From: a virus
Lineage: Duplodnaviria; Heunggongvirae; Uroviricota; Caudoviricetes
Virus record (IMG/VR): IMGVR_UViG_648276668_000012
DNA length: 25,312 nt
Strand: one strand, 5' to 3'
A model generated the notes under the pieces. The model searched no databases. It was not told the origin of the DNA and was given only the letters and a program-made list of their open reading frames with translations. Positions 1-21,427 of the stretch are shown here, piece after piece. The stretch's first letter is position 1. Each line of letters begins with the position of its first letter. The translations under genes were made by a program, and so were the position numbers.

Positions 1-1056
1 TTATTGCGGGGTAATGCCAACCGCTGCCGCCACTTTGTCGCCATTTGGTAACGTTGCCAGTGGATTGAAACGGAGCGCCGTTTCCAAATGATCCGGTGCC
101 AGATGCGCATAACGCATAGTCATTTTTATATCGTGGTGTCCGAGAATTTTTTGTAAGGCCAAGATGTTTCCACCCGACATCATGAAGTGCGCCGCAAACG
201 TATGGCGCAGAACGTGTGTCAGTTGACCGCGAGGGAGAACGATAGACGTTTTTTCCATCACGGATAAAAATTGAAAATAGCAGTCTGTGAAGAAATTGAA
301 CCCATCGAGCGCCATGATCTCTTCATAAAGCTCTTTACTGATAGGGATGCTTCTGTTTTTCTTCCCCTTCGTTCTCACAAAGGTGATTCGGTACTTGGTG
401 ACCTGTGAGCGGGTAAGATTGATTGCTTCTCGCCAACGTGCGCCTGTACTTAGACATATTTTTACCACCAGTGCCAGAATTGGGTTCTGACGTTTGCAGT
501 CAGACAGTAATTCGATAATCTGCTCATGTGTAAGCCATGCCATTTCCTTTTCTGCGATAGTGAATTTGCGCATCTTCTCTAATGGGTTTGGAAGTGTCCA
601 TTCACCCAGGCGGGAAAGTTCTCTGAAAACGCTGCTTAGATGGCTTTGCTCCAGGTTAACAGTAACTGGGCTTGCTCCTTTCTTCCATTTTTCACTGAAG
701 TAGATTTCACCAGTAAGGCGTTTATCGCGATAGTGAGCAAACATTTTTGAGGTGAGATCAGTTGCAAGGGGATTTCCCAAGGCGTCAACCATCAACAGCA
801 GCTTGTTGTAGACATGCTGTCCGGCAGTAAGAGATTTGCCATGTAATTTGAACCATAGCTCAACCATATCTTTCAGTGTCCGACGATCCACTGATTCGCC
901 CAGCCAGGGCTTTGCTTCTATTTCCCCCATGGTGTATCGCTCGAAGGCCAGTGCTTCGCCTTTGGTGGCGAATTGTTTACGCACACGGCGTCCGCTACGT
1001 CCGGCGGGGTAACATTCGCAAAGCCATTTCCCTGTGGTTAGTTTTCGTACTGCCAT
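1..1056 (-). CDS. int: Tyrosine site-specific integrase (P2/186 family)
   Basis: 351-aa ORF; C-terminal catalytic region with conserved tyrosine-recombinase residues (HxxR ... MTMRYAHLAP); GGAGGG RBS 8 nt upstream of the ATG; sits at the prophage edge next to the repressor module. Confidence 0.9.
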   Translation of the reverse strand: MAVRKLTTGKWLCECYPAGRSGRRVRKQFATKGEALAFERYTMGEIEAKPWLGESVDRRTLKDMVELWFKLHGKSLTAGQHVYNKLLLMVDALGNPLATDLTSKMFAHYRDKRLTGEIYFSEKWKKGASPVTVNLEQSHLSSVFRELSRLGEWTLPNPLEKMRKFTIAEKEMAWLTHEQIIELLSDCKRQNPILALVVKICLSTGARWREAINLTRSQVTKYRITFVRTKGKKNRSIPISKELYEEIMALDGFNFFTDCYFQFLSVMEKTSIVLPRGQLTHVLRHTFAAHFMMSGGNILALQKILGHHDIKMTMRYAHLAPDHLETALRFNPLATLPNGDKVAAAVGITPQ

Positions 1057-2580: not shown

Positions 2581-3651
2581 TTATCTTCTATAGGTCAAAA
2601 GGTGAATTAATATATATATTGCAATAGCTAGGATTGCTCCACATATATAATATGTGCCTGTCGGTATGAATTTAAGAATAAAAGCAAAGGCGGCACCATA
2701 TATCAAGTATGCGAAAATTTTACTGAATTTTGTTTTCGTGTTTTTAAACTTCACAACAACAGAGAAGTCATTTAGTCTTGCTTTTTTATCATTAACAATC
2801 TTCCAATGGTAAATCATAGGATCGTGATCACCAAATGAAATATCCTTATCGAAATATTTTGTCCATGTTTCAGACTCTAATATTCTACATCCTTTATAAC
2901 TTGAACCAGATGCTGAACATTCATCAACAATATCTCTAATGATAAACAAATGTGTTTTTAAAGGCGTACAAGCGGCGCTCGCCAGAGTTGTAGCGATTTC
3001 TGAAGGTAGGTTTCTTTGTTCATTGATCCTAAAGTCAATAATATCAGAACGCTCAATATTGCTTTTGAGAAAGAGATCTTTGGGATAAAATGTTTTTACT
3101 AAAATACCTATATCATCAATGTTGAGTTTAACGCGAAATCTCAAGTAATGTGGAGCGTCCTCTGAAGATAGGCAATCTTTTAGCTTGAAAACAATAAAAG
3201 TACCATTATGTATTTTAGTTACCTTAACTCTACGGTCAAGTTCACCACCACTAAAAGTTAGCTTTGTATTAACAACTAAATCACCTTTATTCGCGAGTAC
3301 TAATTTTAAATGTCTGACGTCTACAGTTTTGGTATTAATAAGATACTCATTAAAAACAGCCGTTACGAGATCTCGGCTTGACTCGAGATTTTCACTAAGA
3401 TCCGAAAAAAAACAGTTTTCTTTCTCAAATGGTAAAAATATGCATATTGCGCCATGATTTGCAATAGTATCGTCATCGGGTTTTTCAAACGTAATACCAA
3501 AATCTAAATAACCAAATTTATGAGCACTTAGATTCCAAAAGTTTATATGCAACTCATTAATAAAATTCTTGTGTTCAGGGTTATAGGTCGAGCTCGAATC
3601 ACTGCGATAATCCCTGCATCCCCAGACAGCAAAACTTTTTGACATAAACAT
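2581..3651 (-). CDS. Hypothetical protein (356 aa) with C-terminal double transmembrane anchor
   Basis: Long AT-rich ORF; last ~45 residues form two hydrophobic helices (IFAYLIYGAAFAFILKF ... YYICGAILAIAIYILIHLL); no recognisable catalytic motif. Confidence 0.55.
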   Translation of the reverse strand: MFMSKSFAVWGCRDYRSDSSSTYNPEHKNFINELHINFWNLSAHKFGYLDFGITFEKPDDDTIANHGAICIFLPFEKENCFFSDLSENLESSRDLVTAVFNEYLINTKTVDVRHLKLVLANKGDLVVNTKLTFSGGELDRRVKVTKIHNGTFIVFKLKDCLSSEDAPHYLRFRVKLNIDDIGILVKTFYPKDLFLKSNIERSDIIDFRINEQRNLPSEIATTLASAACTPLKTHLFIIRDIVDECSASGSSYKGCRILESETWTKYFDKDISFGDHDPMIYHWKIVNDKKARLNDFSVVVKFKNTKTKFSKIFAYLIYGAAFAFILKFIPTGTYYICGAILAIAIYILIHLLTYRR

Positions 3652-3673: not shown

Positions 3674-4240
3674 TTATACATCTGATAATATTTTTCGATA
3701 GCATCTTGCGATGGGTTTAATATCGTCAAGCATACAATCAAAAGATGTTTGTCCACTGCTAACTTGCACTCTCCCAACTGGAATTCTAACCAGATCACGA
3801 GAACTTATTTTTCCTTCTATTTCAACAATCCATTTCCCATCAATAATTTCATCAAATTTCATGTCTACTAGATAATTATCTGATAACTCAGAAAATATTG
3901 CGGGGGTAATCATATCCTCCGGGAGCAAATCTTTATCAAAAATGTAAGAGGAATCACCTTGTAGCTTGCCATCTACTATTTTGTAATGTGGCAATTTTAT
4001 ACCTTCTTTCGTTGCCTCAAGACGAGGGGAACCAACACCAGACACTAACCACTCGAGAGACACTCCCGTTTCTAGAGCGCACTGGATTACCCAATCTGCT
4101 GGAAAAATATCACGCATATAGCGCGTTGCCATGGTGCTCTTAGAAACACCTAAATGATCACAGAGAGCCTGACGGGTACCGAACCCATATGCTTCAACTA
4201 AACGTTCTATGGCTTTCTTACCGCCGCTATTGAAATCCAT
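3674..4240 (-). CDS. cI: CI-type immunity repressor (186 CI-like)
   Basis: Protein 'MDFNSGGKKAIERLVEAYGF...CALETGVSLEWLVSGVG' resembles the 186 CI N-terminal DNA-binding domain; chosen start has GGAG RBS 6 nt upstream (the track's longer ORF to 4327 lacks this); position between int and apl/cII. Confidence 0.75.
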   Translation of the reverse strand: MDFNSGGKKAIERLVEAYGFGTRQALCDHLGVSKSTMATRYMRDIFPADWVIQCALETGVSLEWLVSGVGSPRLEATKEGIKLPHYKIVDGKLQGDSSYIFDKDLLPEDMITPAIFSELSDNYLVDMKFDEIIDGKWIVEIEGKISSRDLVRIPVGRVQVSSGQTSFDCMLDDIKPIARCYRKILSDV

Positions 4241-4267
4241 AAGTTCTCCAAAGAAATCCAAAATTCG

Positions 4268-4296
4268 TTGACAGATTCCAAAAGCGATCTTAAAGT
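4268..4296 (+). promoter_or_regulatory. Candidate rightward early promoter (pR-like): TTGACA-N17-TAAAGT
   Basis: Perfect -35 hexamer TTGACA at 4268-4273, 17-nt spacer, -10-like TAAAGT at 4291-4296, about 90 bp upstream of the apl start. Confidence 0.4.
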
Positions 4297-4385
4297 TGAA
4301 CCAGAAGTGTTCTTTTGGAGCCTTCACTACTAATCACGACAAACAACGGCTCGCCACAAGCCATATCTAGAAGGAATGTTGCCTT

Positions 4386-6204: not shown

Positions 6205-7058
6205 GCACCATCCTGAAATGGGCGGGTAATAAAACCGTCATTATGCCAGAACTGAAAAAATACCTTCCTGCTGGCCCGCGACTGGTTGAACCTTTCGCGG
6301 GTTCTTGTGCTGTGATGATGGAGACGGATTACCCCAGCTATCTGGTTGCGGATATTAATCCTGATTTAATCAACCTCTATAAAAAGGTTGCCGCTGATTG
6401 TGAATCGTTTATATCTCGCGCCAGAGTTTTATTTGAGAACGCAAACAGGGAGATGGCTTATTACAACATAAGGCAGGAGTTTAATTACTCAACTGAAATT
6501 ACTGATTTCATGAAAGCGGTATATTTCCTGTATCTCAATCGTCACGGTTACCGTGGTTTATGTCGCTATAACAAGAGCGGGCATTTCAACATTCCCTATG
6601 GTAATTATAAAAATCCGTATTTCCCTGAAAAAGAAATTCGCGCATTTGCAGAAAAGGCCCAGCGAGCCACGTTTATCTGCGCCAGCTTTGATGAAACGCT
6701 GGCGATGTTGAAGGCGGGGGATGTGGTGTATTGCGATCCGCCTTATGACGGTGCGTTTTCCGGCTATCACACTGACGGCTTCACTGAAGATGACCAGTAT
6801 CACCTGGCATCCGTTCTTGAACATCGGTCATCAGAAGGACATCCGGTCATTGTTTCTAACAGTGACACATCCCTGATCCGTTCGCTGTATCGCAATTTTA
6901 CTCACCACTACATCAAGGCAAAACGCAGCATTGGCGTGGCAGCTGGTGAGAGTAAATCTGCAACAGAAATCATCGCTGTTTCCGGGCCGCGCTGCTGGGT
7001 AGGATTTGATCCTTCGCGTGGCGTGGATTGTTCCGTCGTGTACGGAGTGCGTGCATGA
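6201..7058 (+). CDS. dam: DNA adenine methyltransferase (Dam family, N6-adenine)
   Basis: N-terminal 'ILKWAGNK' AdoMet-binding motif and catalytic 'DPPY' motif ([10 protein letters not shown]); GGAGG RBS; ATGA overlap with the upstream gene. Confidence 0.85.
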
Positions 7059-9469
7059 GCCATGCTGATATGAACAACTGCAGCGGCTTTAACGAGGTCG
7101 CCGCAGCATTCTCATGGAACAGCCCGAAAAAGGCCATTAACCCTTATCTGGACCCGGCGGAAGTTGCGCCGGTTTCTGCGCTTTCAAACCTGATCACTCT
7201 GTACGCTGCCGATAACGAGCAGGAACAACTGCGCCGCGAGGCACTGAGTGATCAGGTCTGGGAGCGTTATTTCTTTAATGAATCCCATGATCCTGTCCAG
7301 CGCGAAATGAAGCAGGATAAGCTCATTAGCCGGGCAAAGCTGGCGCATGAGCAGCAGCGTTTTAATCCGGATATGGTCATTCTGGCGGACGTCAACGCCC
7401 AGCCTTCCCATATCAGCAAGCCGCTGATGCAACGTATTGAATACTTTAGCAGCCTGGGCAGGCCAAAGGCTTATTCCCGCTATTTACGTGAGACGATTAA
7501 GCCATGTCTGGAACGACTGGAGCATGTACGCGACAGCCAGCTATCTGCATCTTTTCGCTTTATGGCAAGCCATGAAGGGCTGGACGGCCTGCTGATCCTG
7601 CCTGAAATGAGTCAGGATCAGGTGAAGCGCCTGTCTACCCTTGTCGCCGCGCATATGAGCATGTGCCTTGATGCAGCTTGTGGTGATTTGTATGCCACCG
7701 ATGACGTTAAGCCAGAAGAAATCCGCAAGACATGGGAAAAGGTGGCAGCGGAAACCCTGCGTCTGGATGTCATCCCGCCTGCGTTTGAGCAACTCCGCCG
7801 GAAAAGAAACCGCCGTAAACCCGTGCCCTATGAACTCATTCCGGGTTCGCTGGCGCGTATGTTGTGCGCCGACTGGTGGTACCGGAAATTATGGAAGATG
7901 CGTTGCGAATGGCGGGAAGAGCAGTTGCGTGCTGTTTGCCTGGTCAGCAAAAAAGCATCTCCCTATGTCAGCTATGAAGCCGTGATGCATAAACGTGAGC
8001 AGCGCCGTAAGTCGCTGGAGTTTTTCCGTTCTCATGAACTGGTGAACGAAGACGGCGACACGCTGAACATGGAGGATGTGGTAAACGCCAGCAGCAGCAA
8101 CCCGGCGCATCGCCGCAACGAGATGATGGCCTGTGTTAAAGGCCTGGAGCTTATCGCGGAAATGCGTGGTGACTGCGCCGTTTTCTACACCATCACCTGT
8201 CCGTCACGTTTCCATTCCACGCTAAATAACGGCAGGCCCAACCCGACCTGGACAAATGCGACGGTAAGACAAAGCAGCGATTATCTGGTCGGTATGTTTG
8301 CTGCATTTCGTAAGGCGATGCACAAAGCCGGGTTGCGCTGGTATGGCGTGCGGGTGGCTGAGCCGCATCACGACGGCACAGTTCACTGGCACCTGTTGTG
8401 TTTCATGCGCAAAAAAGACCGCCGCGCCATTACTGCATTGTTGCGTAAGTTTGCCATCCGTGAAGACCGCGAGGAGCTGGGCAATAACACGGGGCCACGC
8501 TTTAAGTCTGAGCTGATAAACCCGCGCAAAGGTACGCCAACAAGCTACATCGCGAAATATATCAGCAAGAACATTGACGGGCGTGGTCTGGCTGGCGAGA
8601 TCAGCAAGGAAACGGGTAAATCTCTGCGTGATAACGCTGAATACGTGAATGCCTGGGCGTCTTTGCATCGTGTTCAGCAATTCCGCTTCTTTGGTATTCC
8701 GGGACGTCAGGCTTACCGTGAACTTCGCTTGCTGGCTGGTCAGGCGGCAAGGCAACAGGGTGACAAAAAAGCAGGTGCGCCGGTACTGGATAACCCGTGT
8801 CTTGATGCCATTCTGGCTGCTGCTGATGCTGGTTGTTTTGCCACCTACATCATGAAGCAGGGCGGCGTACTGGTTCCCCGTAAATATCACCTCATCAGAA
8901 CCGCTTATGAAATCAACGAAGAGCCGACCGCCTATGGCGATCACGGTATTCGTATTTATGGCATCTGGTCACCCATTGCAGAGGGCAAGATCTGCACTCA
9001 TTCAGTGAAGTGGAAAATGGTTCGTAAAGCCGTTGACGTTCAGGAGGCGGCAGCCGACCAGGGCGCTTGCGCCCCTTGGACTCGTGGCAATAACTGTCCC
9101 CTTGCTGAAAATTTGAACCAACAGGAGAAAGATAAATCAGCTGATGGGGACACCAGAACGGACATTACCCGCATGGATGACAAGGAGTTGCACGATTACC
9201 TGCACAGTATGAGCAAAAAAGAGCGCCGGGAACTGGCTGCAAGGTTACGCTTGGTGAAACCGAAACGGCGTAAAGACTACAAACAGCGAATTACAGATCA
9301 TCAGCGACAGCAGCTCGTTTATGAGCTGAAGTCCAGAGGATTTGATGGCAGCGAGAAAGAGGTCGATTTACTCCTTCGCGGCGGCAGTATTCCGTCAGGA
9401 GCAGGCCTGCGTATCTTCTATCGGAACCAGCGTCTGCAGGAGGATGATAAATGGCGGAACCTGTATTAA
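7055..9469 (+). CDS. A: Replication initiation protein A (rolling-circle nicking endonuclease, P2 gpA family)
   Basis: About 805 aa; contains the HxH-type motif 'VHWHLLCF' and a tyrosine-rich active-site region 'YIAKYISKN'; start ATG overlaps the dam stop (ATGA). Confidence 0.85.
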
Positions 9470-9578: not shown

Positions 9579-9621
9579 TGGTTATGTGTACAGTATTGCT
9601 TGTGGTGTCATAGGAGGAAAA

Positions 9622-9810
9622 ATGCAGGACTATTTTTTGGAGTCTTTGAAGCTCCAGCGCATTGATTTTTTTCTTAAGCTTGTAGCGGCTAGTGAGTGTA
9701 GTGATGAAGAGAAGGGGCTGGCTCTGCAGTGGGTTTCTGAGTTGACTGATGAACTCATGGCAAAAATCAGAACTCACGAATACAACCGCTCAATGGATGT
9801 CATCAGTTGA
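9622..9810 (+). CDS. Hypothetical protein (62 aa), first gene of an SOS-controlled pair
   Basis: AGGAGG RBS immediately upstream of the ATG; preceded by the LexA box. Confidence 0.5.
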   Translation: MQDYFLESLKLQRIDFFLKLVAASECSDEEKGLALQWVSELTDELMAKIRTHEYNRSMDVIS

Positions 9811-9820
9811 GGTGACTTTT

Positions 9821-10054
9821 ATGCGCATTGAAATAATGATCGATAAAGAGCAGAAGATTAGCCAGTCTACCCTGGACGCCCTTGAATCAGAGCTTTACCG
9901 CAATCTGCGCCCCCTATATCCAAAAACGGTAATTCGCATCCGCAAAGGTAGCTCTAACGGTGTGGAACTGACCGGACTGCAACTGGACGAAGAAAGAAAA
10001 CAAGTGATGAAAATTATGCAGAAGGTGTGGGAAGACGACAGCTGGCTGCATTAA
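9821..10054 (+). CDS. tum: DinI-family protein (Tum-like antirepressor module)
   Basis: 'MRIEIMIDKEQKISQSTLDALESEL...VWEDDSWL' aligns by eye with E. coli DinI (MRIEVTIAK...ETWESADDWF); GAGGTG RBS; LexA box upstream of the pair. Confidence 0.75.
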   Translation: MRIEIMIDKEQKISQSTLDALESELYRNLRPLYPKTVIRIRKGSSNGVELTGLQLDEERKQVMKIMQKVWEDDSWLH

Positions 10055-10213: not shown

Positions 10214-10639
10214 CTACTTAATTGAGTCCAGTAACAAGTTACAGTTACTCTCATTGTAGAGAGAACGAGCAATTAGTGTTACCTGCTTTCCATTCATTCC
10301 CGGCTTATCCCATAACACAGCTTCTTGCGACGCCACAAATTCAGCATAATCAATTATGCGTTGTTCGTGATCTGGTTCCTCATAGCCAAAGTATGAGAGC
10401 GCATCGTTGTAAGCGTGGTAAGCTGCTTTCTGTAATATCTTGATATCGGCTGTAGGTACTTGCTCCGTGTAGCTAGGATCTAATTGTGTGCTACTGCCAT
10501 AGAATGCACATGAAAGGTAAGATATTGATTTCTGTTGAGCTTTAGTTCCTTTCTCATAGTTTTTAGCTGTTACCGCCTGAACTGGGACGCTAACAAAGCT
10601 TGCAACCAGAATTAAAATTAATACGTAAAAGCTTTTCAT
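10214..10639 (-). CDS. Hypothetical secreted/periplasmic protein (141 aa) with N-terminal signal peptide
   Basis: N-terminus 'MKSFYVLILILVASFVSVPVQAVTA' is a typical Sec signal peptide; AT-rich; opposite orientation to flanking genes; at the P2 tin/old-equivalent position. Confidence 0.55.
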   Translation of the reverse strand: MKSFYVLILILVASFVSVPVQAVTAKNYEKGTKAQQKSISYLSCAFYGSSTQLDPSYTEQVPTADIKILQKAAYHAYNDALSYFGYEEPDHEQRIIDYAEFVASQEAVLWDKPGMNGKQVTLIARSLYNESNCNLLLDSIK

Positions 10640-10981: not shown

Positions 10982-11000
10982 GGCGTGGCGGGGATACGAG
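10982..11000. other. Candidate cos (cohesive-end) site
   Basis: GGCGTGGCGGGGATACGAG matches the first 13 nt of the remembered 186/P2 cos 19-mers (GGCGTGGCGGGGAAAGCAT / GGCGAGGCGGGGAAAGCAC); GGGGATACG repeats 22 bp downstream; lies on the portal-gene side as in P2. Confidence 0.5.
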
Positions 11001-11087
11001 CGCGCGCTGATGGGGATACGGTGTTTTTAGTAAGGTTATGAGGTAGAATTTGACGCGGTTTTTTTAAGCATATTGAGGTGTAAATAG

Positions 11088-11633
11088 ATGGATGCTATTA
11101 CTGGATTATTGGATTTTTTTAGAAAGATTCCAACGGCACTTCTTGTAGCTATTACATGTGGTTTAAGTTTGATCCTTTTTTTGCCAGAATCTTTAGCTTC
11201 TAAAGTTGCGGTTGATGGTTTCCGTAAAGAATATAGAAATTTCATAGGACCAGCATTTTTACTGGCTGTCTCTTTTTTAGTTGCAAGAGTATATCAGTTT
11301 TTTCATGACCTATATGGCGATAGACAAAGGCACAAAGTACGTATCTCTTATTTGGAGAAGCTAACTCCTGAGGAGAAGGGATACCTCTGGTCTTATATAA
11401 TTGATGGCGAAAACTCACTAATGTGTGGTCCTGAAGATGGTGTTATGGGGGGGTTGGTTGCTAAGCGCATAACCTATAGAGCTGCAAACGTGGGCAGTAT
11501 GATTGACGGATTCGCTTTCAATTTGCAGCCGTGGGCTCGCGAGCATTTACAGAACAACACTCATTTATTAGAAGGAGCGGTCGGTAGGGCAATGACACCG
11601 GGTGAGAAACTAGGATTCAGGCGTAGATTTTAA
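11088..11633 (+). CDS. Hypothetical inner-membrane protein (181 aa, two N-terminal TM helices); possibly SieB-like superinfection exclusion
   Basis: Two hydrophobic helices (IPTALLVAITCGLSLILFL; IGPAFLLAVSFLVARVYQFF) followed by a soluble domain; lies between cos and portal gene Q, where P2 has no gene; lower GC than backbone. Confidence 0.5.
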   Translation: MDAITGLLDFFRKIPTALLVAITCGLSLILFLPESLASKVAVDGFRKEYRNFIGPAFLLAVSFLVARVYQFFHDLYGDRQRHKVRISYLEKLTPEEKGYLWSYIIDGENSLMCGPEDGVMGGLVAKRITYRAANVGSMIDGFAFNLQPWAREHLQNNTHLLEGAVGRAMTPGEKLGFRRRF

Positions 11634-11677
11634 CCAGTCGCACACAGGCGATGCTTGACTGGTTAGACAGGGATAAT

Positions 11678-12715
11678 CTATTCAGCGTTCAACTGGTAGG
11701 GGTCAAAAGATATTATTGGCTCATTTAACCATTCGTTAAGTTCTTCAAGTCGCTTTTGTAAAGGAATTAACTCATTTCGCACAAAAACGCGGCTGGCCTT
11801 TTCCACATCCCCAAAACCTCCAACATTATTTGGCATAATCCCCATCATTTGCGGCGGCACGCGGTGCGCCGCCATCATGTCATCCCGGCTCACGTTCTTG
11901 ATGTTTAGAAACTCATCCTTTGCTGCGACCTCTGACAACGGGATGATCTGAAGCCCATCCTTTTTGCCGTTAGGCGAGTACATAAACAGGTTGCGGAAGT
12001 TGCCCGGACCTTTGGCGCTTTTCATCGCGTTGCGGAGGTTGTTTACGTCCTCCTGGTTCTGCGCAGCATCGGTCATGTACATGATGAAGCCTGCATGACT
12101 GCCGTTAATGTAATACTTGCGGCGGAACAGCGTGGCGGACTCGTTGAGCAGGGCTGACGGAATGGCAGAAAGATAACCGGGCAGGCCGTAGATCTCCTGG
12201 TTAATGTCCGGTTCCATCAGATGAAAAATGCTTCCTTTCGTGAACTGATACGGCTGGGTTGTCATACCGTATTGCACAAACCAGTAGGTATCCAGGTCTA
12301 ACCCGCGTCGGGTGTATTTTGCTAGTGCAGGCTCAAGGGCGATAACTTCACCGAAGCGGTTCGTGCGTTTCTCCAGGTAGGCGTTACCAAATACCAGATA
12401 GTCCTGCACAAAACGCGAAAAAGCTTGCTGGCTGAGCAGAGGATGAGGGATATAGGTACTGGTCAGAATGTTGCACTTTACTGCAATCGGGGAACTGTGA
12501 TGCACGGCAGCGCGGAAGGTGCGCGCCAGTCCGTCAAAGCTGACGGGCGGCTCATACCAACGGTCCATCTGTACGCATTCCACATAGTCCAGTAATTCTC
12601 GGCGGTCCAGAACAGGAACGGGATCGCCGAAGCTGAATGCTTCGGCTGAAGTCTGGCTTTTATTCTGGTTCTGGTTCGTCGACGCAGTGCGGTTTTTCTT
12701 ACTCTTTCCCATCAA
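11678..12715 (-). CDS. Q: Portal protein (P2 gpQ family)
   Basis: 345 aa, size and position match P2 Q; 4-nt overlap with upstream terminase ATPase gene; leftward P-Q operon divergent from O-N-M-L. Confidence 0.85.
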   Translation of the reverse strand: MMGKSKKNRTASTNQNQNKSQTSAEAFSFGDPVPVLDRRELLDYVECVQMDRWYEPPVSFDGLARTFRAAVHHSSPIAVKCNILTSTYIPHPLLSQQAFSRFVQDYLVFGNAYLEKRTNRFGEVIALEPALAKYTRRGLDLDTYWFVQYGMTTQPYQFTKGSIFHLMEPDINQEIYGLPGYLSAIPSALLNESATLFRRKYYINGSHAGFIMYMTDAAQNQEDVNNLRNAMKSAKGPGNFRNLFMYSPNGKKDGLQIIPLSEVAAKDEFLNIKNVSRDDMMAAHRVPPQMMGIMPNNVGGFGDVEKASRVFVRNELIPLQKRLEELNEWLNEPIISFDPYQLNAE

Positions 12716-14478
12716 AAAATCTCCACAATATTGCTGGTATTGGCGGACTCGCCCTGCAGCGGTTCGTTAAACAGTGCGTGCATCGTTGCCCAGGCCAGAT
12801 CGGCGTGGCTGGCTTCTTCGCTGCGGCTGGCTTCATAGGTTGGGCGGTTGCCACTGGCGGTGGTTGCGCGACGGATTGCCATGAATGACTGCGCAATGTC
12901 GGTGTGCCCGGCGTCAAACTCCAGACGGCGGTGGCTGATAATGTCGTAGGCCTTGAGTACCAGGGCGTTTTTAACGTTGGGGTTGTAGACAAACTCCCGG
13001 ACGGCAGGAAAGAACGCTTTCACGTTCTCGTAAACCCCGTGACCAACGCCGGTTGAGTCGATACCGATATAAGTCACGTTGTACTGTTCGGTAAGTTTTT
13101 TGATGGCGTCAGCTTGGGCGCGGAAGTCCATCCCGCGCCACTGGTGACGCTCAAGAATGCGGAACTTACCACCCGGCACGGCTGGCGGTGCCACCACCAC
13201 GCATCCAGCGCTGTCGCCGTTTTGCGTACCTTTTGCCGGGTCATAACCGATCCACACTTCGCGCCAGCCAAACGGGCGCAGCGCCAGTGCATGAAAGTCG
13301 GTCCAGACTTCCCAACTGTCCACCATGCACGCCTGCAGCTCGCTGAGCGGAAACACGGACGCGAGATCGTCCACAAACTCGCACATCAGCAGGTTCTGGT
13401 ATTCGTCCGGGCTGTACTCCATGCGTAGCTGGTCGAGGTCGAACAGGTTACAGCCGCCGCGCACCGCATCTTCCACGGTGACTATCTGGCGGTATTGCCC
13501 GTCTGCGCACAGCAGGCCGGGGGCCAGATTGCTGTGGGACAGGTCGATGTCCACCTTATCGGCTTTGTTGCGCCCACGGTTGAACAGCGCACCGGACCAG
13601 AACGGATAAGCACTGTGTGTCAGACTGGATGGCGTGGAAAAATAGGTTTGTCGCCATTTTTTGTGAATAGCCATACCGGAAGCCACTTTGCGCAGCTCCT
13701 GGAATTTCGGTATCCAGAAATATTCATCCAGATACAGGTTGCCGTGGTAACTCTGGGCCGTGCGGGCATTGGTGCCGAGGAAGTAAAGCGTGGCCCCGTT
13801 AGGAAGCACCATCGGATCGCCTTTCAGCTCCACCTCCACTTCTTTGGCAAAGTCGATGATGTACTGTTTAAAGACGTGGGCCTGAGCCTTGCTGGCAGAA
13901 AGGAAAATCTGGTTACGCCCGGTCAGCAGGGCGTCAATCAGGGCTTCACGGGCAAAGTAAAAGGTCGCGCCGATCTGGCGTGACTTCAGCAGGTTGCGGA
14001 TGCGGTTGGTTTTTCCGGCTTCCCACCAGTGGCGCTGGTAGTTGAACATAGAGGAATGGAAGATTTCTTCCAGTTTCTCAATCTGTTCATCGGTAAAAAC
14101 ATTCTTTTCCGGCTGACGACGTGGGCCTTTGTTGCGGTTGGCAACGTTAGGGTTTAAGTCGGCTTCGTTGCCGCCATTGTTAAACTTGCCGATCCGCGCG
14201 TGGCGCTCAGACTGGCGTGCCAGCAGGTCAATTTCTTTGAAATCTTTCCCTTCTTTGTGCTCCTTCATAATGAGCTGGCAGTAGCGTGCGGCGGTGGTGA
14301 GCTGCATCTGATCCAGCGGCCCATAGTCACCCCACTTGTCGCGTTTTTTCCAGCTGTGAACGGTTGCAACTTTCTCGCCCAGCATTTCAGCAATGCGGGC
14401 GACGCGGTATCCCTGAAAGTACAGCAGCATGGCCTGCCGACGGGGATCGAGATCTGCGGGTGTCAGTGTGGTGTTCAT
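12712..14478 (-). CDS. P: Terminase large (ATPase) subunit (P2 gpP family)
   Basis: 588 aa (P2 P is about 590 aa); conserved position and orientation next to the portal gene. Confidence 0.88.
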   Translation of the reverse strand: MNTTLTPADLDPRRQAMLLYFQGYRVARIAEMLGEKVATVHSWKKRDKWGDYGPLDQMQLTTAARYCQLIMKEHKEGKDFKEIDLLARQSERHARIGKFNNGGNEADLNPNVANRNKGPRRQPEKNVFTDEQIEKLEEIFHSSMFNYQRHWWEAGKTNRIRNLLKSRQIGATFYFAREALIDALLTGRNQIFLSASKAQAHVFKQYIIDFAKEVEVELKGDPMVLPNGATLYFLGTNARTAQSYHGNLYLDEYFWIPKFQELRKVASGMAIHKKWRQTYFSTPSSLTHSAYPFWSGALFNRGRNKADKVDIDLSHSNLAPGLLCADGQYRQIVTVEDAVRGGCNLFDLDQLRMEYSPDEYQNLLMCEFVDDLASVFPLSELQACMVDSWEVWTDFHALALRPFGWREVWIGYDPAKGTQNGDSAGCVVVAPPAVPGGKFRILERHQWRGMDFRAQADAIKKLTEQYNVTYIGIDSTGVGHGVYENVKAFFPAVREFVYNPNVKNALVLKAYDIISHRRLEFDAGHTDIAQSFMAIRRATTASGNRPTYEASRSEEASHADLAWATMHALFNEPLQGESANTSNIVEIF

Positions 14479-20482: not shown

Positions 20483-21427
20483 TTAAATTTCGGATTTGGT
20501 TTCAAGGTTTCTCAATGTATTCGGTATCAATGTTTCACTGAATCCAGAAAGCGCACAAATCACATAAATGGAGAATGAGATGTCACTACTATTATTCATA
20601 AACCCGAAGATAATATTCCCCTTGAGCATAAAGTATACAAGTACGCCAGCCATCATTGAAAGGAGTATTCTCTCCGCACCATAGAAGAAATAAGTTTTCT
20701 TTTTTAGTTCTCTGTCTGTATGGAGGCTTTTTATTTTTAGGGATACAGAAATAAACCCCCCGATGGAAGCAAAGGAAGCGGCGTATAACACCACTGGAAT
20801 AAAGTGATTAGCTTTTATGAAATTAGAATCTCTAGCCAAATATGTTATCAATGCAAGGATGATGAATATCAATGCTAAAGTTATGGCTCCTGATTGATAT
20901 AAATTCCTTCCAAGCATTGTGTTTTCATAATCGTTTTTAATGTCTCTATTTATTGCGGCGAAGTTATTTTTGTTTATATCATTTTTTCCAAGTATTGTTG
21001 CTGACATAACTGTTGCTGCTCTTTTTTTATAAATAGAAGAGCAGTTGTATTTGTAGCAATGTGAAATAAACTCATCAAAGTGCTCTTTTGAAGCATGATA
21101 TCTATCAATCTTACTGTCATCCTCCTCAATGATTGAGTCTATGAAAACGAGCATAGACTCATGAGGCGGAAGATTGGCTACTTCATAAATGACATATTCA
21201 TCCCCACGTGAATAAATTTTACTTATGGTGTTTCCACCCAAATCTGTTCCACCAACGACGTATTTGCCAATTCTTTCTTGCTGTTTTTTTTTGTATTCAT
21301 CCCTCTCCTTCTTTGTAGGTGGGGGATTGATGGGATCATTCATTGCATCCATGGGGACAATATTATCTTGCTCAGCTGCTTCTGGGGTATTGGTGTTAGT
21401 TGTCATTTTTTGTGTAGTTAATGTCAC
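20483..21427 (-). CDS. Hypothetical cargo protein (314 aa): N-terminal soluble domain plus four C-terminal TM helices
   Basis: AT-rich ORF on the strand opposite to the tail operon, between S and V; hydrophobic helices at roughly residues 170-300; own terminator. Confidence 0.6.
   Translation of the reverse strand: MTLTTQKMTTNTNTPEAAEQDNIVPMDAMNDPINPPPTKKERDEYKKKQQERIGKYVVGGTDLGGNTISKIYSRGDEYVIYEVANLPPHESMLVFIDSIIEEDDSKIDRYHASKEHFDEFISHCYKYNCSSIYKKRAATVMSATILGKNDINKNNFAAINRDIKNDYENTMLGRNLYQSGAITLALIFIILALITYLARDSNFIKANHFIPVVLYAASFASIGGFISVSLKIKSLHTDRELKKKTYFFYGAERILLSMMAGVLVYFMLKGNIIFGFMNNSSDISFSIYVICALSGFSETLIPNTLRNLETKSEI

Follow-up and report, generated by a model that had tools for sequence, protein, structure and literature searches.

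Exclusion by SieB is among the oldest known prophage exclusion functions, and its genetics goes back to the 1970s. Superinfecting P22-like phages are arrested by the SieB protein of P22 in the middle of their lytic cycle, when macromolecular synthesis comes to a halt (PMC10883804). P22 itself escapes SieB by two devices: (i) Esc, a shortened protein that is translated in the SieB frame, lacks the N-terminus, and inhibits SieB, and (ii) the sas antisense RNA, which switches translation from SieB to Esc. Two further exclusion proteins serve here as points of comparison, SieA, which blocks injection, and RexB, which requires the sensor RexA (PMC10883804).

In P2-like phages, a defense hotspot adjacent to cos and located between gpA and gpQ was defined by Rousset et al. 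2022 (PMC9122126), and the same hotspot is documented by Vassallo et al. 2022 (PMC9519451) and by a 2026 NAR study (PMC13586616). The label 'SieB' occurs among the Pfam labels of the E. coli hotspot arrangements in the supplementary table of Rousset et al. 2022 (PMC9122126), and word searches of the main texts of PMC9122126, PMC9519451, and PMC13586616 found no mention of SieB. In the P2 genome, cos is found at bases 1-19 and the end of Q at base 187, directly beside cos as the first-pass annotation of our locus had stated; the 167 nt between them contain no gene.

The window analyzed here, i.e., the whole stretch of 25,312 nucleotides of the IMG/VR virus record IMGVR_UViG_648276668_000012, carries a P2-like prophage of the Fels-2/PsP3 type with the following layout:

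1-1056, minus strand: integrase
3674-4327, minus strand: CI repressor
between the CI repressor and gpA in gene order: CII/CP76, then Dam methylase
7028-9469, plus strand: replication gene gpA
9749-10054, plus strand: DinI-like gene
10982-11000, plus strand: cos 19-mer, located by alignment to P2 cosL/cosR GGCGAGGCGGGGAAAGCAC (14/19 identical)
11008-11677, no strand: variable cargo cassette, cos to Q stop, delimited by the similarity break and its GC content of 0.41
11075-11080, plus strand: Shine-Dalgarno-like GAGGTG, read from the sequence
11088-11633, plus strand: SieB-family (PF14163) gene, 181 aa, from the ORF, Pfam, hhalign, and the RefSeq annotation
11629-11667, no strand: hairpin between the convergent stops of the SieB-like gene and Q, from RNA folding
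11678-12715, minus strand: portal gene Q, by which the slot is bounded on its conserved right side, from the PF04860 portal annotation in identical loci
12712-14478, minus strand: terminase gene P, followed by head, lysis, and tail genes

The cos 19-mer of the window (GGCGTGGCGGGGATACGAG) belongs to a block of about 150 nt that is conserved across 45 P2-like phage records. Between cos and the Q stop (11678) there are 677 nt, and most of this gap is occupied by the ORF 11088-11633, which is convergent with the portal gene. The placement of this ORF between cos and Q on the strand opposite to Q, as described in the first-pass annotation, thus holds, and the order gpA, cos, ORF, Q puts it at the position by which the hotspot is defined.

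Between gpA and cos, the listed ORF 9586-9810 (plus strand; 74 aa from a GTG start, PHROG 698) overlaps the longest reading of the DinI-like gene (9749-10054, plus strand). Annotated relatives use shorter starts at this place, encoding a 62-aa hypothetical protein and a 77-aa DinI, and therefore the true starts of both ORFs are probably downstream of those listed.

The ORF 11088-11633 begins with an ATG located 3' of the Shine-Dalgarno-like stretch, and this start agrees with the aligned N-termini of 40 homologs. Its GC content of 0.408 (GC3 0.335) is lower than that of the window (0.494), of Q (0.51), and of P (0.56), in agreement with the lower GC originally ascribed to the 181-aa gene. The exact protein was found on at least 1000 contigs, mostly of Salmonella enterica; among 5426 complete E. 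coli genomes, it occurs in 3. A profile of its relatives, run against a library of 1.84 billion proteins, retrieved 2088 clusters at 50% identity (E<=1e-3). In RefSeq the exact protein is named 'MULTISPECIES: super-infection exclusion protein B [Enterobacteriaceae]'. Because of its occurrence on so many contigs, its large and strongly conserved family, and its confident fold prediction (see below), we conclude that the ORF is a genuine gene rather than a chance reading frame.

A segment of the protein, LTPEEKGYL, had been described very tentatively in the first-pass annotation as reminiscent of SieB-type proteins, and an HMM search against the Pfam SieB family had been proposed. This suggestion proved correct. 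The Pfam scan returned a single match, SieB (PF14163), with an E-value of 2.2e-22. The score of 79.7 bits exceeds the cut-off (26), and the match extends over profile positions 5-146 of 147; on the same profile, the experimentally defined members, lambda SieB and P22 SieB, score 103 and 101 bits, respectively. PF14163 was present in all 120 homologs among the matches listed. Comparison by hhalign of a 40-sequence alignment of close relatives with a 21-sequence alignment of P22/lambda SieB gave a probability of 94.5%, and a 142-sequence alignment compared with the P22/lambda SieB family gave 97.8% (E 9e-13), with residues 22-135 aligned and the LTxEE helix included. The hhalign alignment spans the N-terminal helix, both transmembrane (TM) helices, the linker, and the LTPEEKGYL helix; it pairs LLDFFRK with ELMRFFLQ of P22 SieB, and LTPEEKGYL with LTLGERAYL of the same protein. 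The negative controls, P22 SieA and lambda RexB, obtained 3% and 0.3%. In the viral structure library BFVD, the top match is again P22 SieB (Q38660; probability 1.0, E 0.018). At the levels of sequence, profile, and fold, the ORF 11088-11633 encodes a divergent member of the SieB family.

The extent of the divergence is seen in pairwise searches. BLASTP of the 181-aa protein against lambda SieB was not significant, and a tblastn search of 50,697 phage records found no homolog in enterobacterial phages, its only hits being YopH of phage SPbeta and an unannotated Akkermansia phage (29% identity over 87% of the query), which together account for three phage records. The protein thus represents a distant clade of SieB. 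Searches of NCBIfam, PHROGs, and PADLOC yielded no useful match for the ORF. The PADLOC result is uninformative, since with PADLOC-DB v2.0.0 no match was obtained for P22 SieB and lambda SieB either (queries L006:2259-2834 and L004:183-734), the library being without a SieB model; consequently, automated defense surveys that rely on PADLOC overlook SieB cargo. The identification itself is already known, since RefSeq names the protein and Rousset et al. 2022 list SieB cargo in the hotspot.

Hydropathy analysis (Kyte-Doolittle) revealed hydrophobic segments at residues ~14-32 (2.38) and ~51-70 (1.59), which supports the two N-terminal TM helices reported from the first reading of the sequence. 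A structural model was built with AlphaFold2 from 142 diverse homologs (pLDDT 96.5, pTM 0.81); it replaced a run on a shallow 40-sequence alignment, for which pLDDT was 63.7 overall and below 50 at the C-terminus. The predicted elements are a helix at residues 2-13, a TM helix at 16-31, a short loop with two small helices at 34-48, a continuous helix at 50-90, and a compact C-terminal alpha/beta domain at 94-161, in which the order is helix, strand, helix, strand, strand, helix. The corresponding parts of the gene are as follows:

11091-11126, plus strand: predicted N-terminal cytoplasmic helix, aa 2-13 (LLDFFRK), from the AlphaFold2 helix and hhalign, matching the part of P22 SieB that is missing from Esc
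11133-11183, plus strand: predicted TM helix 1, aa 16-32, from hydropathy (2.38) and the AlphaFold2 helix 16-31
11235-11357, plus strand: predicted TM helix 2, aa 50-72, with a basic cytoplasmic stalk to aa 90, from hydropathy and the AlphaFold2 helix 50-90
11361-11570, plus strand: predicted cytoplasmic winged-helix-like domain, aa 92-161, with the conserved motifs LTPEEKGYL, DGVMxGL, and GFAFNLQPWAREYL

The stalk contains 5 K/R residues, and the charge distribution places the stalk and the C-terminus in the predicted cytoplasmic compartment. The topology is confidently predicted to be a two-helix TM hairpin with both ends in the cytoplasm. A Foldseek search of the PDB with the AlphaFold2 model gave no significant match, and a PDB sequence search with the 181-aa protein found nothing. 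The residues that are invariant across the wider family (L92, T93, E96, L100, G118, L123, W149, and A150) are mostly in the core or in helix-capping positions, and the winged-helix-like domain is slightly acidic, with a net charge of -3. For these two reasons DNA binding would seem to fit the domain less well than the recognition of proteins through a variable surface.

We consider it likely that this gene, an accessory gene of a P2-like prophage and a divergent SieB member in the gpA-gpQ hotspot, aborts infection by heterologous phages, as suggested by its homology to P22 and lambda SieB. By the same homology, the protein would be made in the lysogen and would reside in the inner membrane; once a heterologous phage had reached the middle of its cycle, macromolecular synthesis would be shut down and no progeny would be released. 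The winged-helix domain may sense a phage product, which, given the slight acidity of the domain, would more likely be a protein than DNA. The TM hairpin and the N-terminal helix may then carry out the shut-down, for instance through damage to the inner membrane.

The same architecture could in principle serve to exclude phages at entry, by an inner-membrane protein that stops DNA injection in the manner of P22 SieA, HK97 gp15, and T4 Imm. Many prophage membrane proteins act at injection (PMC10883804), and a small inner-membrane protein made by the prophage and exposing only a short periplasmic loop, as is predicted here, would be in keeping with such a role. However, the homology detected by hhalign is to SieB and not to SieA, the folded cytoplasmic domain, which is predicted to make up over half of the protein, is easier to reconcile with an intracellular signal than with a block at entry, and the action of P22 SieB falls in the middle of the lytic cycle (PMC10883804). 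We regard an entry block as unlikely for this protein.

For the distribution of the gene, we compared P2-like prophages from species-representative genomes, retrieved with the portal protein as the query; cos was located in 62 of these relatives. Similarity between the window and its relatives stops just past cos (~11008) at ...GCGCGCGC and resumes inside Q, which delimits a cassette of ~11008-11677. The distance between the Q stop and cos in the 62 relatives varies from 101 to 3499 nt, and in 10 of them (101-249 nt) the slot is empty, as it is in P2. Neither family HMM detected SieB in the slot of any of the 62 relatives. The SieB-like gene is also absent from P2, Fels-2, and phage 500465-1; the slot is occupied by an AIPR protein in Fels-2 and by a TIR/SEFIR protein in phage 500465-1. 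Cargo sampled from the slots of relatives includes TIR/SEFIR proteins, Schlafen AlbA_2 with HATPase_c_4, KAP NTPase, an OLD-like ATPase-TOPRIM protein, subtilase, and DUF4145, and in Citrobacter prophages the same slot holds a 70%-identical SieB variant. A check of presence and absence across related prophages had been suggested at the outset, and its result is clear: the SieB-like gene is accessory cargo of a slot in P2-like prophages.

The cargo appears to consist of one gene. Across cos from an identical SieB allele, six different cargos occur, namely the 141-aa secreted protein of the present window, an acetyltransferase with DUF8087, KAP NTPase, HipA_C with HIRAN, HEPN_LA2681, and DUF4145. 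Homologs from Pseudomonas and Vibrio (55-60% identity) lie in integrase/IS islands, and those of their upstream neighbors that were examined are unrelated to each other. A two-gene system was rejected on both of these grounds, and the SieB-like gene is thus a single-gene unit.

The left-hand cargo of the window, on the gpA side of cos at 10214-10639 (minus strand), has a low GC content of 0.40, and its 141-aa product starts with a signal peptide (...VPVQA). The protein matches PHROG 7437, a group without an assigned function (E 4e-99), and nothing else, Pfam and PADLOC included.

The slot comparison also bears on the suggestion that the membrane protein has no anti-phage role and serves lysogenic conversion or the phage's own use, by acting on envelope physiology, lysis timing, or membrane state. 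Two observations agree with it: SieB and Esc, as a pair encoded in one frame, resemble the dual starts of holin and antiholin (a comparison of our own), and the clade is unusually conserved for a defense gene, with 50-60% identity from Salmonella to Pseudomonas, Vibrio, and Methylophaga. However, the alternative occupants of the slot are overwhelmingly defense-type genes, most relatives do without the gene, including P2, Fels-2, and the 62 species-representative prophages, the lysis cassette of the prophage is complete away from the slot (holin, lysozyme, LysA/B/C), and the non-phage homologs reside in integrase/IS islands. A function of this kind is, in our judgment, quite improbable. That the gene is a conserved structural or packaging component of the phage lineage, as its adjacency to cos and to the portal/terminase operon might suggest, or else a spurious ORF, is hardly credible, since the slot is empty in 10 of the 62 relatives and filled with unrelated genes, without any SieB match, in the rest, P2 lacks the gene, and this distribution refutes the structural reading, whereas the large, strongly conserved family and the confident fold prediction speak against the spurious one.

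Other parts of the prophage also show signs of variable content. The interval from the integrase to the CI repressor contains three ORFs (1135-1506, 1852-2553, and 2581-3651), all on the minus strand. A 123-aa ASCH-domain protein from this interval matches the PADLOC candidate PDC-M11B (E 4e-49), and a 233-aa protein matches PDC-M11A (E 6e-79); since the latter match covers only profile positions 11-231 of 357, the 233-aa protein may be truncated. For the 356-aa ORF of the same interval, no match was found in Pfam or PADLOC. The three ORFs look like a second defense-cargo site of the prophage. Between the tail gene S and the baseplate gene V, a 314-aa ORF without a match in Pfam or PADLOC is encoded on the opposite strand (20483-21427, minus strand), in the place where P2 carries its non-essential orf30. 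In a Citrobacter relative, the gene between S and V is another one, of 252 aa (L019 11239-11997), and the S-V interval may be a third variable slot.

The regulation of the SieB-like gene was analyzed with the P22 devices in mind. An Esc-type internal start was not found: codons 1-70 include, after the start codon, neither ATG nor GTG in frame, the TTG codons 8, 28, and 32 are not accompanied by a Shine-Dalgarno sequence, and the alignment of the clade contains no conserved Met column in its first 60 positions, whereas Met25, the start of Esc, is present in 95% of the P22/lambda-type SieB sequences. Without an Esc start, the resident P2-like phage must be either naturally insensitive to the protein or able to silence the gene in another way. 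In the former case, the resident phage might simply not make the trigger. In the latter, and this is speculation, transcription of the convergent late genes P and Q could extend across the SieB-like gene and yield an antisense RNA.

No sigma-70 consensus promoter was found upstream of the gene on the plus strand. The best hexamers on this strand, TAGAAT (11044-11049) and TTGACG (11050-11055), cannot belong to one promoter, and hence expression of the SieB-like protein in the lysogen is assumed here. On the minus strand, a promoter-like site runs from 11133 to 11105 (TTGGAA, 17 nt, AATAAT), antisense to the 5' end of the gene, and recalls the sas antisense RNA of P22 sieB; it may be due to chance, as the count of promoter-like sites in the region (3 found vs 2.4 expected in shuffled controls) is in effect no higher than in shuffled sequence. 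The hairpin at 11629-11667 has a folding energy of -16.5 kcal/mol (z -2.0 on the plus strand and -2.7 on the minus strand) and no U-tract in either direction; a consensus scan for intrinsic terminators, which gave no match on the plus strand, did not classify it as a terminator.

We put forward a tentative and still rather doubtful proposal for the family as a whole. SieB proteins might be membrane-tethered winged-helix sensors, in which a phage product appearing in mid-cycle would be recognized by the cytoplasmic winged-helix domain and would switch the N-terminal helix and the hairpin to a membrane-poisoning state. The Esc-less clade, which shows 50-60% identity across Gammaproteobacteria, would then be a self-contained abortive-infection system made of a single protein, and its self-immunity would be unlike that of P22, relying for instance on antisense read-through out of the convergent late P-Q operon, for which no terminator is evident. 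If this proposal is true, an exclusion system with a genetic record going back to the 1970s would have its first mechanistic model.

Independently of that proposal, three points define the interest of the locus: (i) the P2-type defense hotspot is a site where a divergent clade of SieB circulates, as cargo of a single gene, (ii) this clade is without the Esc device for self-immunity, and (iii) the SieB family is confidently predicted to consist of a TM hairpin that bears a cytoplasmic winged-helix-like domain. The finding is of value for its confident structural model and because a single gene gives simple access to a mechanism that has long been puzzling. A concrete construct follows from it, together with testable hypotheses on the sensor domain and the effector.

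Comparison of the SieB-like protein with P22 SieB (192 aa; NP_059604) and lambda SieB (184 aa; NP_597779) revealed several common features: (i) the three proteins are of similar size and belong to the same Pfam family, (ii) their parts come in a like order, with an N-terminal helix, two TM helices, a linker, and a domain with the LTxEE helix, and (iii) each is encoded by a prophage-borne single gene that forms its own transcription unit. Among viral proteins, the best structural match of the SieB-like protein is P22 SieB. The differences concern both ends of the protein and the genomic position. The C-terminal ~45 residues (GFAFNLQPWAREYL...TP..K) cannot be aligned with P22 SieB, and the N-terminal leader comprises 15 aa, compared with 24 aa in P22 and lambda SieB. 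The Esc-type Met25 is missing from the present clade. The SieB-like gene lies beside cos and Q of a P2-like myovirus, whereas sieB of P22 and lambda belongs to the PL operon of a lambdoid phage, where its neighbors are N/gene 24 on one side and ral on the other.

The other exclusion proteins used for comparison, lambda RexB and P22 SieA, are likewise inner-membrane proteins expressed by the prophage, and their homology to the SieB-like protein is not detectable by hhalign. YopH of the Bacillus phage SPbeta, annotated as 'superinfection exclusion B family protein', comes from a distant host and a different genome context, and with it the family reaches prophages of Gram-positive bacteria. Within the P2-like phages, the hotspot cargo of P2 itself, old and tin, is on the gpA side of cos, whereas the SieB-like gene is on the Q side, which in P2 is empty. 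The cargo genes of the hotspot in the studies of Rousset et al. 2022 and of Vassallo et al. 2022 resemble the SieB-like gene in that they occupy the same slot, have low GC content, and are swapped between near-identical prophages.
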